A stretch of 31,478 bases of DNA from Saprospiraceae bacterium (GTDB lineage: Bacteria; Bacteroidota; Bacteroidia; Chitinophagales; Saprospiraceae). Positions 428-20,925 of this stretch are shown here, piece after piece (position 1 is the stretch's first letter; every line of letters starts with the position of its first letter). Under the pieces are notes generated by a model, which searched no databases, was not told the DNA's origin, and worked only from the letters and a program-made list of their open reading frames with translations. The DNA is taken from positions 1 to 31,478 of the forward strand of contig JAHDBO010000001.1 of NCBI GenBank assembly GCA_020630355.1. Direction: 5' to 3'. Made by a program: the position numbers and the translations under genes.

Positions 428-697
428 ATTCTGTTTCTTAGTTTGTTTTTTATTTCAAAAGAAGGGAATCCTTTCCCTGCTTTCGCTCTTGGGTGAGGTC
501 TTTTGATTATCCCTATATTTTTTCTTAATCGGTGTGTTTTTCCTTTCATGGCTATCAATTTCCTGATAGTTTTATCTAATATCATGATAATATTCTGTTT
601 TTTGATTTTTGTATTTGTAAAACGGATCAATGCGATATATGTTTGATTTTGATTGAAAATATATTTTATAAAATATTCATTATTAATAATTTGTAAT

Positions 698-3235: not shown

Positions 3236-3763
3236 CTAGGCTCTGTAATGGCCTAGCGTGTTGCCATATCTGTTTAGCAACATCTTTTGTAATTTTTTCC
3301 TAGCGAAATAGATGCGACTTTTTACCGTTCCGATAGGTACATTGAACATGGATGAGATTTCTTTGTACTGATAACCTTGGTAAAAAAGTGTAAAAAATTC
3401 CTCTTGCTCATCAGGGAGGCAAGCTATCATTTTTTTGATTTCATGCATTAAGATAATGTCGTCAGGGTTATCACCTGATGGTCTTTCTTCTGCTAGGTGT
3501 ATGATGGGTTCAAGAGGTGTTTCGATGTTCCATCTGGTTTTGCTCTTTCGGTAGTGGTTGATGAAAGAGTTGCGCATGATGGTGGTCATCCAAGCTTTGA
3601 AATTGGTGCCTTTCCTGAAGTTGCCTTTGTTCTTGAATCCTCTCATCAAGGTTTCTTGCATAAGATCTTTGGCTTTGTCATGTGATTTGGTCAACCGCAT
3701 TGCAAAACCGTAGAGCAGTGTTTTGATTTCTTCAACTTTTGAATTGAATTCTAATGTGTTCAT
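3236..3763 (-). CDS. ECF RNA polymerase sigma-70 factor, no adjacent anti-sigma
   Basis: Region 2 (AKDLMQETLMRG...FKAWMTTIMRNSFINHYRK) and region 4 (YQYKEISSMFNVPIGTVKSRIYFARKKL); 175 aa. Confidence 0.95.
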   Translation of the reverse strand: MNTLEFNSKVEEIKTLLYGFAMRLTKSHDKAKDLMQETLMRGFKNKGNFRKGTNFKAWMTTIMRNSFINHYRKSKTRWNIETPLEPIIHLAEERPSGDNPDDIILMHEIKKMIACLPDEQEEFFTLFYQGYQYKEISSMFNVPIGTVKSRIYFARKKLQKMLLNRYGNTLGHYRA

Positions 3764-3971
3764 GTGAAAAAAATTTAGCGGTGAATGGGTTTCTTGTTGT
3801 TTAATGTATATTCAATAGTTGTGCCAATCTTTTAATGGTTTGATTATCAATGTTTTACAATGATTTATTGATGATGTTTTTATTTTATTTAATAAAAATT
3901 TATTTTAATAAATAAAATGCAAATTAAATGGATTATCGTCCCATATTTAAAGTGGAATTTTTTTGATTAGA

Positions 3972-4003
3972 TTGAACATCTGATTGTTATGTCCCGTTCT
4001 AGT
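3972..4003 (+). promoter_or_regulatory. ECF-type island promoter motif, copy 3
   Basis: TTGAACAT-N15-CGTTCTAGT, 157 nt upstream of ATG 4161. Confidence 0.7.
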
Positions 4004-4160: not shown

Positions 4161-4460
4161 ATGATTAATACAGAAAAGACTACTTCTCAGATGAAGCAAG
4201 AGTTGGTTTCCATCTTGAAACAACTCAATCAAAAAATAGATACTTATTCAAGGCATTATGCAAAAGGTCAAGCCAATAATGTCAAGAAAATATTAGGTGC
4301 TACCAATAAGCTGATTGGTCATAGGTTTGTGATACGAAATCTTAAGGATAGAATCGAACAGATGAAAAATCTACCAGAAGGATTAAGAGTTGAAATCAAA
4401 CAAGCTTACGAAAATGCAAAGAATGACTTAATGACATCAGATGTAGTCATTAATGCATAA
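4161..4460 (+). CDS. Hypothetical helical protein
   Basis: 99-aa ORF after an A-rich start region, first gene after promoter copy 3. Confidence 0.65.
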   Translation: MINTEKTTSQMKQELVSILKQLNQKIDTYSRHYAKGQANNVKKILGATNKLIGHRFVIRNLKDRIEQMKNLPEGLRVEIKQAYENAKNDLMTSDVVINA

Positions 4461-7076: not shown

Positions 7077-7490
7077 ATGAGAAAAATATTATCAATCATA
7101 TTCATCCTATTTAGTATTACAATGTTTTCTATTACGGCTTGTAATACACAAACACAAACAGAAGCAGAAAAGGCGAAAGAAGAGATTAATGAGGCGGGCG
7201 AGGCTATTTCGGATGCATGGGAAGCAGAAAGAGCCGAATTAGAAGCTGACATGAAACAAGCTCAAATTAGTCTCAATGCTCGTATCGACGAACTGCAGAG
7301 AGACTTGGAGGTGGCTACTGCTGAAGCGAAAGGAGAAATCCAAGAAGAATTGGACAAGTTGGAAACACAGCGTCGCAAAGCTAGCACACAACTTAAACGC
7401 TTTGGTGATGTTGTAGATGATGGTTGGAATGACTTTAAAAATGAGGTTGAGCTAACGATCACTGGCATCGAGCGCTCTATTGAAAAATAA
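7077..7490 (+). CDS. Coiled-coil lipoprotein
   Basis: Lipobox ITA-C at residue 22, then acidic heptad-rich helices. Confidence 0.75.
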   Translation: MRKILSIIFILFSITMFSITACNTQTQTEAEKAKEEINEAGEAISDAWEAERAELEADMKQAQISLNARIDELQRDLEVATAEAKGEIQEELDKLETQRRKASTQLKRFGDVVDDGWNDFKNEVELTITGIERSIEK

Positions 7491-11370: not shown

Positions 11371-12666
11371 ATGTATTTCACATCCAACCCCAGTGGGCTC
11401 GGAAACATCACTAGTTTAGCTGATGAATCCAATCTAGTCATTATATTCTCGGATAAGTCGGGTAAAATTATTTGGAGCAACACCCAGATACACCATTTCT
11501 TTGGTATCTCATTAGTAGATGTAGTAGGCTATCCTATATTTCATTTCCTGCCAGAGCTTTCCTTGATGGATCTTTTAAAGAGCAACAAACAAGGTAGTGT
11601 TATATGTGTCAGCAGTCAATTGTTAGATGCTCATAAAATGCTCCATGATATTTATTTGTCTATCGCGCCAGTAAGCGTAAATGATAAGTTGGGTTACGGC
11701 TTTATAATCGGAATTGATGACAAAGCTAGAAATGTCCATACTTCTATAAGCAATGAATTTTTGAAAACCGTTCCCCGACAAAAATCTGATAAAGTTTGGT
11801 ATAATAAAGGGTTGAAGCCAAAAGGGGTTACACCGATAGGGCTCATCAATAGAGAAATCGTAAGCTATGGCATCTCTTACGGGAATATTTTACATCAAAT
11901 TGCGGACTATTGCGCTTTAAAAGAACAACATATTTTGATTTTTGGTGAAAAAGGTACGGGTAAAAAGCTTATATGTAAAACAATGCACCAATGCATGCAA
12001 GCAGAGGGAGAGTATCCATTATTGTTAGACTGCAACCTTCGCACCAACGAAGATAACGAACAAATGCTTTTTGGTGTACAGAGAGGCAGCACTATACAAG
12101 AAGGCCTTCTAGATAAAGTGGATAAAGGAGCCCTTTATTTGTGTAATATTGATTCTTTGGATATCCAGCTACAGGACAAATTAGTAGTAGCCTTGATGGA
12201 TAAACAATTTTATAGGTACAAATCAAAAGTATCTATACCTATAAATTTCAGGTTAGTGGCAACCTGTGAAGCATCTCCTAACAGCCTGTTAAGAAAGGGT
12301 AAGCTACACCCTGCTCTAGTCCGCTTGTTTAGGGAAACAACTATTTGTAATATCCCTCTTCGGGAACGTCGAGAAGACATCCCCTTACTTATTCAGTTTT
12401 TTATAAGACAGTATGGTATGAAATTATTTTTGAAAAAGGACTCTCTTTTTTCAGAAAAAGAATTGGAACGCATAATATCCTATGATTATCCAGAAAACAT
12501 ATCAGAGCTCGAACGGATAACACGACAGGCTATTAGTGATTTTCCAATCGAGCTAATGCATCCTATGGCGGTATTATTGAAGGAGTTGATAGATAAAAAC
12601 AAAACATCCGATGATGCGAGCACTTTGAGTGGCAATATAAGTTCTGACCTAGACAGAGCAGTATGA
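11371..12666 (+). CDS. PAS + sigma-54-activator-like AAA+ domain protein, catalytically degenerate, no evident HTH
   Basis: PAS-like N-terminus; Walker A GEKGTGK, PLRERREDIPLL retained; Walker B reads LYLCNID; GAFTGA absent. Confidence 0.8.
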   Translation: MYFTSNPSGLGNITSLADESNLVIIFSDKSGKIIWSNTQIHHFFGISLVDVVGYPIFHFLPELSLMDLLKSNKQGSVICVSSQLLDAHKMLHDIYLSIAPVSVNDKLGYGFIIGIDDKARNVHTSISNEFLKTVPRQKSDKVWYNKGLKPKGVTPIGLINREIVSYGISYGNILHQIADYCALKEQHILIFGEKGTGKKLICKTMHQCMQAEGEYPLLLDCNLRTNEDNEQMLFGVQRGSTIQEGLLDKVDKGALYLCNIDSLDIQLQDKLVVALMDKQFYRYKSKVSIPINFRLVATCEASPNSLLRKGKLHPALVRLFRETTICNIPLRERREDIPLLIQFFIRQYGMKLFLKKDSLFSEKELERIISYDYPENISELERITRQAISDFPIELMHPMAVLLKELIDKNKTSDDASTLSGNISSDLDRAV

Positions 12667-14251: not shown

Positions 14252-14262
14252 GTTTTAAATAA

Positions 14263-14293
14263 TTGAACATCAGAGGGGAATGACTGTTTTAGT
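14263..14293 (+). promoter_or_regulatory. ECF-type island promoter motif, copy 4
   Basis: TTGAACAT-N14-TGTTTTAGT, 35 nt upstream of ATG 14329. Confidence 0.65.
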
Positions 14294-14328: not shown

Positions 14329-15558
14329 ATGAAAATGAAAGATAAATTGTATTTGAGTGGTTTACTCCTATTTTGCCTCATGCAAATAGTAACAGCACAA
14401 GGTCTTGACAATGAACAAGGGTTTAAATTAGAGCGAGCCGATGATTATTTTTTAATGGATGAAGATGTTGCTTTTTCTATGTTGGATGAAGAGGTGATTT
14501 CTAATCCTTACTCGGTAGAAGCACTGATTAAAAGGGCGAAATTAAAGATGCGCTATGGTCAAGCTAGCGAGGCAAAAAAGGATTTGGATAGGGCGCTTCA
14601 AATCAACCCCTTTGCGCTATATTTATATGATTTTTATGGAAAAAAAGGAATTATAGCACTACTAGAAACAGAGCCGAATAAAGCTCTGGTCTCCTTAACC
14701 GTAGAGGATCGGGTGGATGAGTATCGAGACTACCTAGACAATATGTTCGACAAAGAACGTTTTTCAGGAGGTAGTTTTGAGTTTTTTATGAGTATTCTAA
14801 ATTTGATAGAATTGGAAGAATATCAGGAAGCAGTTGACCAAACAAACGCTTACCTCACCAATTATCCGGATTCTAATTATGCGATGGATTTGAAAGCCTT
14901 CGCTTTGATAGAACTTGGAGAAATACAAACAGCAAAAGCGGAACTCCTAAAAGCACTTTCTTACAATATCGAGAATGCAATGACCTACTATAAACTAGGT
15001 AGAATCGCCCGTATTGAAGGGGATGAAGAGACCGCGCTGGATTATTTTAACCGTTCCATTTCTATCAATAGCGCAATGGGGAAAGCCTATTTTGAAAGGG
15101 CAAAGGTTCACAAGAGTTTGGGGCAGTATCTTATGGCGGTGAGAGATTACTCTAAAGCAATGGAGAAAAGTGATTTCACTAAATCCCCTTCTTTAATCAA
15201 TAGAGGGCTGACCAGTAAAATGTTAGGTGATTTCAATAGGGCACATTCAGATCTTTCAAAGTCTATTAGGCTATATCCGAGTAATGCCTTATTGTATAAA
15301 AACCGAGGAAATATAAGCTTCTTGATGGGCGAGTTGGAGGAAGCACTTCGTGATTATGATAAAGCTATCAGCTTAAATGAAGATCTAGCAGAGGCTTATT
15401 ATAATCGCTCATTAGTGCATTATAAGTTACAAAACAAAGATTTGAGTTGTGAGGACTTGGCACGTAGTGCGGCACTAGGGATTACAAAAGCCGCTACAAA
15501 AAAACAGATTTTATGTGACCCCATTGATACAGGTATTCGAGTGACTAATAAACAATAA
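14329..15558 (+). CDS. Exported tetratricopeptide repeat protein
   Basis: Signal peptide ending VTA-Q; many TPR units (e.g. AEAYYNRSLVHYKL, LYKNRGNISFLMGELEEALRDYDKAISLN). Confidence 0.9.
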   Translation: MKMKDKLYLSGLLLFCLMQIVTAQGLDNEQGFKLERADDYFLMDEDVAFSMLDEEVISNPYSVEALIKRAKLKMRYGQASEAKKDLDRALQINPFALYLYDFYGKKGIIALLETEPNKALVSLTVEDRVDEYRDYLDNMFDKERFSGGSFEFFMSILNLIELEEYQEAVDQTNAYLTNYPDSNYAMDLKAFALIELGEIQTAKAELLKALSYNIENAMTYYKLGRIARIEGDEETALDYFNRSISINSAMGKAYFERAKVHKSLGQYLMAVRDYSKAMEKSDFTKSPSLINRGLTSKMLGDFNRAHSDLSKSIRLYPSNALLYKNRGNISFLMGELEEALRDYDKAISLNEDLAEAYYNRSLVHYKLQNKDLSCEDLARSAALGITKAATKKQILCDPIDTGIRVTNKQ

Positions 15559-15581
15559 CGTCGTTGGTAGGATACATTGTT

Positions 15582-15624
15582 AAAGAGCCGCTTTAAACTT
15601 ATGTTTGAAGCGGCTCTTTTTTTA
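15582..15624 (+). terminator. Intrinsic terminator
   Basis: AAAGAGCCGCTTTAAAC-ttat-GTTTGAAGCGGCTCTTT plus a T-tract. Confidence 0.85.
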
Positions 15625-15786
15625 TAAATAAAAAGCTAGGGAAATATTCTCCTTTTTCTCAAAGGGTTATCTTATACCAATACATAGTTAGAATGTCAAT
15701 TAAATTCATTTGTATTTTTCTGCTTGGACAAGGCTGGTTCCCAAATCGTCAACTTGTTTTTCGTCCGTTACTAAGTATATGTAAAA

Positions 15787-15817
15787 TCGAACATATAACA
15801 GCCCTAGCCGTTGTAGT
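15787..15817 (+). promoter_or_regulatory. ECF-type island promoter motif, copy 5
   Basis: TCGAACAT-N14-CGTTGTAGT, 43 nt upstream of ATG 15861. Confidence 0.7.
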
Positions 15818-15860
15818 TTAAAACTATATCTGACAATAGTTAGATTATAAAACATTGGTT

Positions 15861-16187
15861 ATGGCAATGATCGTTTTTGTAAAGAACACAGCAGGTCTAC
15901 CCAATAAATATGTACGTTTTATTAAATGGAAACTCAGAACTGTAAAAGAGAAATTTCAATGGCTCAATGAGGCTCGGGTTTTCTTGAAAAAAGAGGGTGT
16001 AAAAAGACCGATATACAAAGCAACTGTAATGTTGAAGGTTCGTGATAAGGTACTAGTATTAAATCAAAAATCAGAACATCTGCCCAGGCTATGGAAGGAG
16101 ATGTATGAAGAAACACAACGGTCTTTAAGGAAATACAGGGACAAAAAACGCCAATCAAGTAAAGATGCATTGAAGTCAATAATTTGA
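15861..16187 (+). CDS. Divergent short HPF/RaiA (S30AE) ribosome-associated protein
   Basis: Aligns by eye with short HPF: RFIKWKL..VKEKF..LNEARVFLKKE...YKATVMLKV....LVLNQKSE......QRSLRKYRDK; very basic; start could be 15867. Confidence 0.7.
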   Translation: MAMIVFVKNTAGLPNKYVRFIKWKLRTVKEKFQWLNEARVFLKKEGVKRPIYKATVMLKVRDKVLVLNQKSEHLPRLWKEMYEETQRSLRKYRDKKRQSSKDALKSII

Positions 16188-16522
16188 ACACACAAAAATT
16201 ATACACTATGATTTACACTTCGAAAAGGAATATAATAGATGGAATTAATCGGGCCAGGGCCAAGGGGTACAAAAAATCTTTTCTTTTCAACGGTAGCCAT
16301 TTAGTGGACAAAGACAGCCTTAATGTTTATGACGCATGGGATTGCGAAATAGTTGAAGAAGAGACATTTGTAGAGGGGCCCTCTTTTGCATTATTTTGGT
16401 TTCGTTGTAAGGATGGCATAAAAGGATATTTAACAAAGCCTCTTAAAGGAGAGCTGAATGATAAGCTGTCCCAATTTCTGAAACGGGTTCAAAACAAGGA
16501 ACAAAGTCTAAATTCGTACTGA
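16184..16522 (+). CDS. Small conserved-looking hypothetical protein
   Basis: IDGINRARAKGYKKSF...EIVEEETFVEG...GIKGYL recalls a Bacteroidota small-protein family often mislabelled as PRPP synthetase (recollection, unverified); TTG start overlaps the HPF-like stop; alternative ATG 16208. Confidence 0.65.
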   Translation: MNTQKLYTMIYTSKRNIIDGINRARAKGYKKSFLFNGSHLVDKDSLNVYDAWDCEIVEEETFVEGPSFALFWFRCKDGIKGYLTKPLKGELNDKLSQFLKRVQNKEQSLNSY

Positions 16523-16541
16523 GTCTTTGGCTCAAACGTAC

Positions 16542-16579
16542 AAAAAGGGGACCTGAGTTGATTTAGCTCAGGTCTTTTT
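16542..16579 (+). terminator. Intrinsic terminator
   Basis: GACCTGAGTT-gattt-AGCTCAGGTC plus TTTTT. Confidence 0.75.
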
Positions 16580-16587
16580 CATTGGAA

Positions 16588-16618
16588 TCGAACATGTACC
16601 CATACTTTCCGTTTTAGT
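16588..16618 (+). promoter_or_regulatory. ECF-type island promoter motif, copy 6
   Basis: TCGAACAT-N14-CGTTTTAGT, 139 nt upstream of ATG 16758, just after a terminator. Confidence 0.7.
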
Positions 16619-16757
16619 TATGTAGCGTTACCCGACGCCAATTTCCAGTTAAACAACACATTAGTAATTAATTGAGTTCAGGACTGTTGACACAGGTCAA
16701 CTAGTCCCCCGGTGTGATTATAACATATATTTTAAATAAAAAAATACAGAAGAAAAG

Positions 16758-17915
16758 ATGGAATTAAATCATGAAATTTTAAGTCAACTGATTAGTGAAA
16801 AAGGAAATTCAATAGAACCTTGTATCAGTATATACGTGCCCACGTCAAGAGCAGGTACTAGCCAAGAAGATAGGATAAGATTGAAAAATGCACTATCTAA
16901 AGTTGTAGAAAAGCTAGTGGATAAGGGTTGGACTAAAAAGGATAGCCTAAAGTATTTGGCAGAAGCGTACGCACTACATGACGACGAACAGTTTTGGTTG
17001 TATCAATCAGATTGCTTGGCGATTTTCTTGAAAGGAGAAAAATGCCACTATTTTAGGTTGCCTGGTGTAGAACGCAAGATGGTACACATAGACAATCAAT
17101 TTTTCATCCGGCCTTTGGCAGGTAAAATTCAAGAGGATAAACGCTTTTTTATATTGGCATTGAGTCAAAACGAAGTTCGTTTTTTTGAAGGCCATCCGAA
17201 TCATATCATCCCTGTAAATATCAAAGATATTACGCCACAGAATTTAGAAATGGCGATAGGGGGAGATGGTACGACATCCTCACATGTCAAGCAGCATAAT
17301 AATGGTAGCAATGTATTTTATCATGGACAAGGTGCAGGGAAAGATGATAAAAATGAAGAGCTAACGAAGTATTTTCGATTGATTGACAGTGGCTTGATGG
17401 AGATGTTGCACGATGAAAAGGCGCCCTTGGTGATTCATGCCGTCGACTATCTCGTACCTATATATAGGTCTGTCAGTCAATATAGCAATATCGTCAACAA
17501 TCATGTAAGTGGGAATCCTGAAAATGATGACCCCGTCTTGATACACGAAAAGGCTTGGTCGGCAATACAGCCTTATTTTGAATCAAAATACGAAGCAGAA
17601 AAAAACCTATTCCATAGCTATCGCTCTAGGAATTGGGCCAGTACTTTTTCGCAAGAAATTATTCCAGCCTCTATAGAAGGTCGAGTAGACGTACTTTATA
17701 TTCAAAAAAATACGAAGCGTATTTGGGGTAAATACGAGCCTAAAAGCCACACGGTAAAGTTCCATTCCAAACGGAAACAGAAAAGCGAAGCCTTATTGGA
17801 GCTTGCGGTAAGAGGAGTGTTGAATAGTGGCGGCGTAGTGCATTGTGTCGAAGAGTCAGATATGCCAGAGAAAAATGTACCAATATGTGCCGTATACAGG
17901 TATGCTCGTTCGTAA
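16758..17915 (+). CDS. Bacterial archaeo-eukaryotic release factor homolog (baeRF family 3/7-like; Balon-like)
   Basis: CISIYVPT...DRIRLKNAL, FW...DCLAIF, FFILALSQNEVRFFEG, YHGQG, YFRLID, HVSGNP and a C-terminal L7Ae-like IPASIEGRVDVLYI...GGVVH...AVYRY. Confidence 0.85.
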   Translation: MELNHEILSQLISEKGNSIEPCISIYVPTSRAGTSQEDRIRLKNALSKVVEKLVDKGWTKKDSLKYLAEAYALHDDEQFWLYQSDCLAIFLKGEKCHYFRLPGVERKMVHIDNQFFIRPLAGKIQEDKRFFILALSQNEVRFFEGHPNHIIPVNIKDITPQNLEMAIGGDGTTSSHVKQHNNGSNVFYHGQGAGKDDKNEELTKYFRLIDSGLMEMLHDEKAPLVIHAVDYLVPIYRSVSQYSNIVNNHVSGNPENDDPVLIHEKAWSAIQPYFESKYEAEKNLFHSYRSRNWASTFSQEIIPASIEGRVDVLYIQKNTKRIWGKYEPKSHTVKFHSKRKQKSEALLELAVRGVLNSGGVVHCVEESDMPEKNVPICAVYRYARS

Positions 17916-17944
17916 TTGATTAAAAAAAACAGAAATACAAAAAT

Positions 17945-18871
17945 ATGTGGAAACAGTTCAATGAATCTTGGGATAATCTGGTAAGTAAGTTAGAGGGGTG
18001 GTTAGATGGTATTATTACCAATTTGCCCAATATAATACTAGCGGTGCTAGTAATGAGTGTCGCTTTTTTTCTGTCAACTTATATTAAGAAAATAGCTCAA
18101 AAGGGGCTTAGGAAAGCGACGAAAAACGACACCGTTACAGGTGTACTGTCCAATATAGCGACGGCCGCATTCATGCTTTTGTCCTTGTTTTTAGTATTGG
18201 GAATCCTAAATTTGGATAAAGCATTGACCTCCTTGTTGGCGGGTGCTGGTGTCGTTGGACTGGCCATAGGTTTGGCATTGCAAGATCCGATGGTCAATCT
18301 CTTCTCGGGCGTCCTGATGTCCGTAAGAGATTATTATTCGGTTGGAGATTTAGTCGCAACAAATGGTTTCGAAGGGAAGATCAAGTCGATCAACCTGCGC
18401 TCTACAATCATTGACTTACCCGACGGGCAAGAGGTGATTATTCCGAATAAAGACGTCCTTCAAAACCCCCTCAAAAATTATTCGCATACGCCTAGAAGGC
18501 GTATTGAGGTCAATTGCGGAGTAGCTTATAATGATGATTTGGAGAAGGTCAAGGACACTGTAGTTAACGCGATTGAAAACAATATAGAATTTATAGATAG
18601 CAAACCTGTAGCATTGTACTTTACAGAATTTGGAGATAGTTCTATTAACTTTACAGTACATTTTTGGCAGCGCATCGTGACCCATGCGGAATATAAATCC
18701 GCTAGAAGTAAGGCGATTATTGCGATCAAGAAGGCATTGGATAAGGAAGGGTTCACAATACCATTTCCAATACGAACCTTGGATTTCGGTGTGGAAGGAG
18801 GAGTGCGCATTGATGATATTTATCCTAAAAAAGCACTTTTAAGCTCTACTAATGGGAATGGTGAAAACTAA
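17945..18871 (+). CDS. mscS: Second MscS family mechanosensitive channel
   Basis: GLALQDPMVNLFSGVLM, G.IKSINLRSTII..PDGQEVIIPN, FGDSSINF motifs. Confidence 0.93.
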   Translation: MWKQFNESWDNLVSKLEGWLDGIITNLPNIILAVLVMSVAFFLSTYIKKIAQKGLRKATKNDTVTGVLSNIATAAFMLLSLFLVLGILNLDKALTSLLAGAGVVGLAIGLALQDPMVNLFSGVLMSVRDYYSVGDLVATNGFEGKIKSINLRSTIIDLPDGQEVIIPNKDVLQNPLKNYSHTPRRRIEVNCGVAYNDDLEKVKDTVVNAIENNIEFIDSKPVALYFTEFGDSSINFTVHFWQRIVTHAEYKSARSKAIIAIKKALDKEGFTIPFPIRTLDFGVEGGVRIDDIYPKKALLSSTNGNGEN

Positions 18872-19235
18872 TATAGGTATCAGACTTTTTTACAAAGCAA
18901 TTTCACTAAATTGAAAAATAATAATTTCCGTTTGAACGCCGAATTTTTTGAGTCCGTAGCTCGGTTATGCGCCAAAAAAACGAAGTCCTTAAAAGGAAAA
19001 ACTCAATGCTCACTTTAGTGACTATATGAACTAGTCTATTAGACATTATTCTATTTTCGATTTTGGTGAAAACAGTAGGCTATAAAAGAATGATTTTCAA
19101 TCTAATACCTAAAGACTAATATCTGATTTTAGAATAAAAGCTATTATTTGCTAAGTCCCTTATCTAATAACTATAAAGCTACAAAATCTTGTTTTTCAAT
19201 GAAGCATATAAAAATAAGATCTAAACCTAATATCA

Positions 19236-19709
19236 ATGAAGTTCTCTAACCTTTTCGGGTGGTCGCTTAAGGCGACCACTTTTATTGGTATAATAGGAAT
19301 TGCCCTATTGGCGATAGGAATTGAATGGTATGCCTTTATAAAGATTGCCAATATCTTTGAACTGATTTTCTCTGCAGCATTAGATGGGGATGTGGTCGTC
19401 AAAAAAGTATTGCATACGCTTGATATGATTTTGATAGGGATTACCCTTTTTACAATCGCTATCATGCTTTATGAGCTTTTTATAGATAAGATAAATGGTT
19501 TGCCAGCTTGGTTGGTTATATCTAGCATGGACGAGCTAAAGGGGATTATCGTCAAGATGATTATTGTGGTATTGGGGATTTCCTTTACAGGAAAAATTAT
19601 CACGTGGGATGGACAGGCTGATTTGATGGGATATGGTGTCGCTCAGGCACTTGTGATAGTTTCGCTCAGTTATTTTCTAGTTGTCAAAGCAAAGAAAGAA
19701 GAAGCTTAA
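19236..19709 (+). CDS. YqhA family (UPF0114) membrane protein
   Basis: VLHTLDMILIGITLFTIAIMLYELFI and PAWLVISSMDELK motifs; 4 TM. Confidence 0.88.
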   Translation: MKFSNLFGWSLKATTFIGIIGIALLAIGIEWYAFIKIANIFELIFSAALDGDVVVKKVLHTLDMILIGITLFTIAIMLYELFIDKINGLPAWLVISSMDELKGIIVKMIIVVLGISFTGKIITWDGQADLMGYGVAQALVIVSLSYFLVVKAKKEEA

Positions 19710-20150: not shown

Positions 20151-20172
20151 TGGACCTCTGAGAATGATGAAA

Positions 20173-20204
20173 TTGAACATACCTGGTTTTCAAGCCGTTC
20201 TAGT
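20173..20204 (+). promoter_or_regulatory. ECF-type island promoter motif, copy 8
   Basis: TTGAACAT-N15-CGTTCTAGT, 19 nt upstream of ATG 20224. Confidence 0.7.
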
Positions 20205-20223: not shown

Positions 20224-20925
20224 ATGAAAAAAATAATCATAATGTTTTTGTTAACTGTTCCGGTCATCGTTTGGTCGAATAGTATATTTGAAATGGAAAA
20301 AGGAGAATGTAACCATGAAGGGGATATTGTGTCTTCCTTTAATGTCAGATTTGAGATGGACGTGGCAAAAGCAAAATCTTATTGGAACGATTTTATGGAA
20401 GATGAGAATGACAACGATATTAGTGGATATGGCTTATTCAGAAAAAAAGACCTTTTGGAAACAGAAATGACGCTGATGCCAGAGCTGAGTAATGAACCGC
20501 TTAAATTATTTGCCCACTTCCGACAACTTGGCGAGTATGCTGTGCTCCATCTTTATGCAAAGGACAAATCGGGTACTTTCATTGCCGAAGATAGCCATCC
20601 CAATACCTTCAAAAACATCCAGCGGTTGGCACAACGGTTTGTCAAATATACAGTGCCGTTGCACTGTGAAAATCTGCTTGATGAGGCACAGGATAAACTG
20701 AAGGATTACCAAAAGCAAAGAGAACGAAAACAGGATGACATCGAAGATATGGAAGAAGATATAACCGAGCATCAGGAAGAAATCCAAGACCTGAAAAAAG
20801 AAATCCAACAAGGGAAAATCTCCTTAGAAGGTATCGACCAAAATATAGAAAGTGCCAAAGCCGATTTAGAAGCGAAGGAATCGCTGTATGATTCCATCAA
20901 GAAAGAACTAGCGGAGATTAAATAA
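20224..20925 (+). CDS. Exported protein with C-terminal acidic coiled coil
   Basis: MKKIIIMFLLTVPVIVWS signal peptide; about 85-aa heptad-rich C-terminus. Confidence 0.8.
   Translation: MKKIIIMFLLTVPVIVWSNSIFEMEKGECNHEGDIVSSFNVRFEMDVAKAKSYWNDFMEDENDNDISGYGLFRKKDLLETEMTLMPELSNEPLKLFAHFRQLGEYAVLHLYAKDKSGTFIAEDSHPNTFKNIQRLAQRFVKYTVPLHCENLLDEAQDKLKDYQKQRERKQDDIEDMEEDITEHQEEIQDLKKEIQQGKISLEGIDQNIESAKADLEAKESLYDSIKKELAEIK

Follow-up and report, generated by a model that had tools for sequence, protein, structure and literature searches.

A stretch of 31,478 nucleotides (nt) from a Saprospiraceae bacterium (contig JAHDBO010000001.1 of assembly GCA_020630355.1, positions 1 to 31,478, hereafter "the window") was analysed with emphasis on the gene cluster at 15785-18871, which comprised, in order, a promoter, open reading frames (ORFs) 1 and 2, a terminator, a second promoter, and ORFs 3 and 4. 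A preliminary description of this DNA had proposed two adjacent units, each with its own copy of one promoter, and this arrangement was recovered: the four ORFs formed two units, and the promoter motif was found at 15785 and 16586. ORF1 encoded a divergent relative of the hibernation promoting factors (HPF/RaiA), ORF2 a small protein, ORF3 a homologue of the hibernation factor Balon belonging to the baeRF proteins, and ORF4 an MscS-type channel (Table 1). The window is a stress island, and ORF1 and ORF3 are, judged from their sequences and surroundings, probable ribosome-hibernation genes of that island, preceded by promoters of the extracytoplasmic function (ECF) sigma type. The window corresponds to one contig (C229) of an assembly of 2.31 Mb in 408 contigs that is 64% complete.

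ORF1 scored 19.2 bits against the Pfam S30AE model (PF02482; cut-off 23.7) and 21.4 bits against TIGR00741 (cut-off 40.9), passing neither, and a single-sequence search of the PDB gave no match; only a family profile was effective. This profile (A1) represented a family of eleven homologues with an invariant NKYVRFxKWK motif, of which ORF1 was the most diverged member. When A1 was run against the PDB with hmmsearch, 20 of the 22 matches were HPF/RaiA/YfiA chains, the best (8rd8_D, E = 1.8e-5) being the Psychrobacter urativorans RaiA that was solved together with Balon on the ribosome, and E. coli HPF aligned to the profile over its full length (E = 6e-5). PF02482 was matched by 7 of the 11 family members (best E = 3.9e-8), some of them above the cut-off, and hhalign of the family with six canonical Saprospiraceae HPFs gave 97.9% (E = 4.6e-13). 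The AlphaFold2 model of ORF1 (predicted local distance difference test, pLDDT, 89) followed the order beta-alpha-beta-beta-beta-alpha, and the top 35 Foldseek matches of this model in the PDB were all HPF/RaiA/pY proteins, most of them with template modelling (TM) scores of 0.65-0.88. These results support a predicted HPF fold and homology to HPF/RaiA for the protein starting at 15861, in line with its earlier description as HPF/RaiA-like and highly divergent.

ORF1 resembled the short HPF/YfiA (RaiA) proteins of PF02482/TIGR00741 in length, fold, basic helices and profile-level homology, but differed from them in its sub-threshold scores, in its own NKYVRFxKWK motif, which is absent from canonical HPF, and in the position of its subfamily beside TetR and ABC-HlyD-OEP pump genes, where it is additional to the canonical hpf of the same relatives. 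The subfamily was small, with 55 representative clusters out of 1.84 billion reaching E = 1e-10 or better, and occurred in Saprospiraceae or Chitinophagales records only. A protein that keeps the HPF fold and does not bind ribosomes, serving instead in another RNA- or protein-binding role, e.g. as a regulator or accessory of an efflux operon, would agree with the scores below cut-off, the private motif and a gene context unlike that of canonical hpf, but all fold matches with E below 0.01 were HPF/RaiA/pY chains that are bound to ribosomes or bind them, hhalign placed the two lysines that are invariant in helix 1 of canonical HPF opposite K24 and the basic position conserved next after it in the ORF1 subfamily, and the strong positive charge was kept throughout the subfamily (isoelectric points of 10.2-10.6 across members), so that such a loss of ribosome binding is considered improbable.

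A canonical hpf above the Pfam cut-off was present in all 24 same-family genomes searched, and the relatives that carry the HPF-like gene possess a canonical hpf too, which agrees with the proposal that ORF1 is additional to a core gene; the present draft, 64% complete, yielded no core hpf, including by tblastn with six canonical Saprospiraceae HPFs, a search that also missed ORF1 itself. Because the assembly is incomplete to this degree, the absence of a core hpf cannot be claimed here.

ORF3 matched the Pfam baeRF families 7, 6 and 3 (E between 2e-40 and 2e-35) and aligned over its full length with the Balon family model NF052287 (143 bits, below the equivalog cut-off of 330). A single-sequence phmmer comparison with chain 8RD8_B, the solved Balon of P. 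urativorans, gave E = 5.3e-18 (residues 16-382 with 10-369), and a profile of 11 Saprospiraceae ORF3 homologues matched the same chain with E = 7.5e-71 and the mycobacterial Balon MSMEG_1130 with E = 8e-7; this profile gave no aeRF1 or Pelota match. Sequence comparison therefore supports the view that ORF3 is a full-length homologue of the Balon family, and its earlier designation as a Balon-like baeRF protein is retained. The homologue in Neolewinella aquimaris is annotated merely as a hypothetical protein.

The catalytic GGQ and NIKS motifs were absent from ORF3; its sole NIK string (NIKD, at about residues 154-157) lay outside the N domain, at an alignment position that is not conserved. 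In the loop aligned with the GGQ region (window 17275-17400, residues ~187-200) ORF3 carries HGQG, and a few baeRF families keep a conserved glutamine (Burroughs and Aravind, PMC6514570), both of which would be compatible with an active, stop-codon-independent peptidyl-tRNA hydrolase, that is, a rescue factor acting through this loop. Among 27 close homologues, however, the glutamine position was Q in 14 and H in 9, and N, K or R in the others, the constant residues being H-G-x-G-x-G-K-D (subfamily motif [FY]HG[QH]GxGKD). Variation of this glutamine argues against hydrolase activity and is what a Balon-type factor without catalysis would be expected to show; the motif differs from GGQ, and the nearest solved relative is by far Balon. 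The loop glutamine is accordingly an unlikely equivalent of the one in GGQ, as read from the alignment, and a rescue function for ORF3 is very unlikely.

ORF4 contained, in order, the domains PF05552, PF21088, PF00924 and PF21082, which correspond to the transmembrane helices, the beta domain and the C-terminal domain, and was homologous to NF047602 and NF007662 with scores below their cut-offs. It was separated from the Balon-like gene by 29 A-rich nt with no terminator. The 135-nt leader of the Balon-like gene contained a hairpin whose GTTGAC/GTCAAC stem was kept in a contig of a sister lineage (L100) with a different loop; an Rfam scan of 15400-19400 gave nothing close to a gathering score.

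The promoter motif had the form AATYRAACAT-N13/14-CCGTTnTAG, with GAACAT as -35 and CCGTT as -10 block and 16 nt from AAC to CGT. Sigma factors of the SigW kind recognise TGAAAC-N16-CGTA, and the block spacing in the window fits this ECF type. Five matches to the motif were found where shuffled sequences gave an expectation of 0.86, and with an 18-position consensus, built from five window sites and leaving out the site at 14261 before the TPR gene, six sites scoring at least 17/18 were found in the window and one in the remaining 2.28 Mb of the assembly. The six copies precede the DUF2383 gene, the gene at 4161, the TPR gene, ORF1, ORF3 and the gene at 20224, and a weaker site precedes the thioredoxin gene. 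Two short contigs from metagenomes, belonging to a sister lineage with 76-80% identity at the protein level, showed the same succession of ORF1, ORF2, terminator, promoter and baeRF, and before ORF1 the -35 and -10 blocks were invariant in both (L098, L100) where spacer and flanks had diverged. The motif also lay 53-72 nt 5' of 5 of 20 baeRF orthologues from other genera (background 2.5% per search window) and before unk2 (ORF2), Dps-like and ECF genes in relatives. Were the repeated motif no promoter at all, e.g. the remnant of a mobile repeat, the two units would not be co-regulated, and the lack of a motif upstream of the island sigma gene could be read in this way; all copies are nevertheless intergenic, each facing a gene with fixed spacing of the ECF type, the blocks alone are conserved, and orthologues in other genera are preceded by the motif as well, all of which makes a non-promoter origin extremely improbable.

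Co-regulation of both units by an ECF sigma is thus well supported at the level of sequence, and the genes of the two operons are probably co-induced. The candidate reader of the promoter copies is the ECF sigma factor of the island, and homologous ECF genes adjoin baeRF or HPF-like genes in relatives. The preliminary description had placed both units under one ECF sigma: the conserved ECF-type promoter before each of them bears out the common control, but the single sigma is uncertain because a paralogue is encoded on contig C23 of the same assembly, and identities of 35-62% did not resolve orthology between ECF sigmas of the island and of the pump type. A palindrome, TAGTTTAAAACTA (window 15812-15826), shares bases with the -10/start region of the promoter before the HPF-like gene, is partly kept in L098 and L100 (AGTGTAAAACTAT), and could be an operator.

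Table 1. Positions of the genes and signals in and around the two units (numbering of the window).
Feature	Position	Strand	Remarks
Promoter copy	611-648	-	score 17-18/18
Island ECF sigma factor, candidate reader of the promoter copies	3236..3763	-	Sigma70_r2, r4_2 and ECF domains
Promoter copy	3970-4002	+	score 17-18/18
Promoter copy before the TPR gene	14261..14292	+	score 17-18/18
TPR gene upstream of unit 1	14329-15558		
Intrinsic terminator closing the upstream TPR gene	15582..15619	+	17-bp stem, then T run
ECF-type promoter P1, AATCGAACAT-N13-CCGTTGTAG, ~45 nt 5' of ORF1	15785..15816	+	score 18/18
ORF1, divergent protein with predicted HPF/RaiA fold	15861..16187	+	108 amino acids (aa), isoelectric point 10.5
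ORF2 (unk2), small conserved protein, PH-like predicted fold	16208..16522	+	104 aa
Intrinsic terminator of unit 1, GACCTGAG...CTCAGGTC, then TTTTT	16550..16579	+	read from sequence; kept in L100
ECF-type promoter P2, AATCGAACAT-N13-CCGTTTTAG, ~140 nt 5' of ORF3	16586..16617	+	score 18/18; kept in L100
Hairpin in baeRF 5' leader, GGACUGUUGAC-loop-GUCAACUAGUCC	16681..16707	+	minimum free energy and centroid folds
ORF3, putative Balon-family (baeRF) protein, three-domain, aeRF1-like	16758..17915	+	385 aa
ORF4, MscS-type mechanosensitive channel	17945..18871	+	Pfam MS_channel domains
Promoter copy	20171-20203	+	score 17-18/18

The other genes of the window included those for YtxH-like, holin-X-like, BrkB/YihY, MscS, TrkA/TrkH, AraC, UPF0114, thioredoxin and coiled-coil proteins, and the left edge held the DUF2383 gene, a gene with no assigned function and an AI-2E transporter gene. 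A sequencing-run search located the window DNA in three DNA runs, all from one algae-metagenome study, and listed no RNA runs.

The distribution of the genes was surveyed in 401 Saprospiraceae genomes, whose kinship makes ratios of co-occurrence descriptive only. The HPF-like subfamily was present in 58 genomes (scores were bimodal, canonical HPFs trailing at E ~1e-9) and the Balon-like gene in 84; both occurred in 13, against 12.1 expected if they were independent, and this genome was the only one with both on one contig. Among reference genomes the two were associated at 2 of ~60 HPF-like loci, in addition to the sister contigs of this lineage, and in one metagenome-assembled genome (L068) baeRF, MscS, TetR, HPF-like and ABC genes lay within 7 kb. 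The accessory two-factor hibernation system that had been proposed from this locus was not supported as a fixed system, given the co-occurrence at chance level, the common contig in this genome only and the different usual contexts of the two genes.

For the Balon-like gene this usual context included MscS: baeRF and the MscS2 orthologue occurred together in 51 genomes (22.8 expected), and in 15 genomes of the family, this one included, orthologues of ORF4 and of baeRF were no more than 15 kb apart. The baeRF orthologues adjoined homologues of ECF, DUF2383, o7077, MscS2, AI-2E transporter and BrkB genes and, judged from these neighbourhoods, the Balon-like gene belongs to a stress-island context. 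At four loci (L078, L082, L085 and L039) o7077, DUF2383 and baeRF formed an apparent operon; in the window the DUF2383 gene (ferritin-like four-helix protein; 2-370, - strand) and the o7077 coiled-coil gene (7077-7490, + strand) were dispersed, each near a promoter copy. A sigma-54-activator-like AAA+ gene (window 11371-12666) had counterparts a few kb from the Balon-like gene in L042, L078, L086 and L096.

ORF2, which could alternatively start from a TTG at 16184 that overlaps the stop codon of ORF1, had no Pfam or NCBIfam match. Its structure model (pLDDT 82) gave weak PH/PTB-like matches in the PDB by Foldseek (TM ~0.4), protein-atlas matches to Bacteroidota clusters without names, and AlphaFold DB cluster matches to uncharacterised Bacteroidota proteins (TM 0.6-0.8), and its family (alignment A2) was a small Bacteroidota family. 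Some database entries label this family "phosphoribosylpyrophosphate synthetase", a name which is probably an annotation error, and in some AlphaFold DB entries an ORF2-like fold was seen within longer hemerythrin domain-containing or NADP-dependent oxidoreductase proteins. In relatives the gene usually lay between a gene for a membrane protein of no assigned function and an AI-2E transporter gene, beside Dps; here and in L049, L061, L098 and L100 it followed the HPF-like gene. A complex prediction for ORF1 with ORF2 scored 0.01, a value that counts neither for nor against interaction.

The HPF-like gene had a different setting elsewhere in the family. In ~19 of 24 loci from other Saprospiraceae it lay directly 5' of ABC (546 aa), HlyD and OEP genes, and 12 of these loci also had a TetR gene in divergent orientation (examples are L014, L015, L017 and L058-L075, e.g. 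L060:6218-12138), and in many relatives a palindrome of the TAGTAATACTA type was found ~40-60 nt before its start codon, between promoter and gene. In the genome analysed here the orthologous ABC-HlyD-OEP operon (split between the end of one contig, C23, and the start of another, C138) had no HPF-like gene. In this region (C23:10368-15554 and C138:1-4056) the ECF sigma paralogue and two PAS-domain proteins were encoded upstream of the pump operon, which was preceded by an ECF-like motif (TCTTGAACAA-N13-CTCGTTCTAG), and the TetR orthologue was found on C211:2001-2717 with a TAGCAATACTA palindrome upstream. ORF1 as a type I secretion substrate of the ABC-HlyD-OEP system was also considered and set aside, the protein being highly basic with a predicted HPF fold. 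A literature search for HPF paralogues tied to TetR or efflux gave nothing directly relevant.

This setting would suit an HPF-like protein acting mainly in a drug or toxin response, in which it shields or idles ribosomes while the pump clears the compound, the adjacency to the Balon homologue being a secondary rewiring to the ECF regulon. The pump context at ~19 of 24 loci, the 12 divergent TetR genes and the TAGTAATACTA palindrome speak for it, as do, in the genome analysed, the pump operon that lacks an HPF-like gene and the TetR gene placed elsewhere. The window, on the other hand, holds neither pump nor TetR gene, the TetR-operator palindrome of the relatives (AGTAATACT) is absent before its HPF-like gene, and the promoter is of the stress-island type. 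Such a role is regarded as doubtful; ribosome binding would be common to it and to the stress-island interpretation, the trigger alone being different. As a tentative extension, the NKYVRFxKWK proteins may be ribosome shields co-expressed with a TetR-controlled pump against a translation-targeting compound, which in this algal-associated lineage would have been freed from the pump and moved to a general-stress ECF promoter beside the Balon homologue, so that one signal would close both ribosome sites.

The interpretation we favour, with a probability of roughly 0.6, is that the two units are co-induced operons of a stress island which encode parallel ribosome-silencing factors and not an obligate pair. 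The gene content, the predicted fold and homology, and the repetition and conservation of the promoter are results of the analysis, and we infer the sigma that reads the promoter, the stress that induces it, binding to ribosomes and synergy of any kind. Both operons would be switched on when an island ECF sigma is released. ORF1, a very basic HPF paralogue, would by its fold and homology lodge in the 30S mRNA/tRNA channel and prevent initiation, and would be co-translated with the small PH-like ORF2. ORF3, by homology to the Psychrobacter factor, would bind, probably together with EF-Tu, in the A site of ribosomes that are idle or stalled, and would be made together with an MscS channel handling osmotic downshock. 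Parallel action of the two on one ribosome pool is probable because they bind at different sites and do not clash sterically in the known structure of a ribosome with Balon and RaiA. Each would be an independently mobile accessory gene, this lineage having brought both side by side under one promoter type.

Several observations weigh against this interpretation. ORF1 scores below the curated cut-offs of both HPF models, and the VPG turn that is kept in its own subfamily and in canonical HPFs has been lost from it. ORF3 belongs, by its sequence, to a distant subfamily and is not a Balon equivalog, its score being far under the cut-off, and ORF3 has TSRAGT (P-T-x-R-[AS]-G in the subfamily) where Balon has THREHP, the stretch compared for the N-domain HP motif that contacts A1492/A1913. 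A search for autoregulation showed no convincing motif upstream of the island ECF sigma gene, and the sigma paralogue on C23 is 62% identical to its product. Co-occurrence of the HPF-like and Balon-like genes at chance level means that selection for joint action is not evident.

Placement of hpf under alternative sigma factors has a precedent in B. subtilis, where yvyD, the hpf gene, belongs to the SigB/SigH-dependent general-stress regulon. The window likewise combines an alternative sigma with Dps, YtxH-like, DUF2383-type, thioredoxin and channel genes; it differs from such regulons in the ECF class of the sigma, the Bacteroidota host, the clustering in one island and the inclusion of a Balon homologue.

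That HPF and Balon/baeRF genes occur side by side in stress settings has been published before. Burroughs and Aravind (2019, PMC6514570) reported that baeRF and HPF genes are persistently associated and predicted factors that block the A site without catalysis, and Helena-Bueno et al. (2024, PMC10901736) solved Balon and RaiA on one ribosome (PDB 8RD8) and found Balon genes most often beside raiA and in stress operons. Like Balon in P. urativorans, ORF3 is a predicted aeRF1-like three-domain protein whose gene adjoins, in a stress setting, one for a protein of the HPF/RaiA fold, but its identity to Balon is ~20-25%, its HGxGxGKD loop is unlike that of Balon, its neighbour is a sub-threshold HPF paralogue, and the genes lie in separate operons with ECF-type promoters and with MscS probably co-transcribed. 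With the baeRF-1 clade and its HPF neighbourhoods, as described by Burroughs and Aravind, ORF3 agrees in its matches to the Pfam families baeRF 7, 6 and 3; the Saprospiraceae association differs in being rare and in involving a lineage-specific HPF paralogue. The gain is incremental, since the core idea had been published; new are the sub-threshold, lineage-restricted HPF subfamily with its efflux-operon context, the sharply defined ECF-type promoter that joins this subfamily to a Balon homologue, and the recurrent Balon-MscS linkage in Saprospiraceae.

Balon was described in 2024, and its regulation is little known outside Psychrobacter and mycobacteria. The locus offers a testable regulatory handle in Bacteroidota, in the form of an ECF-type promoter common to an HPF paralogue, MscS, Dps-like and DUF2383 genes, and brings to light a small subfamily of HPF that escapes standard models; homologues exist in cultured relatives. 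The conserved link to efflux operons suggests that hibernation-type factors may also serve drug or toxin responses.

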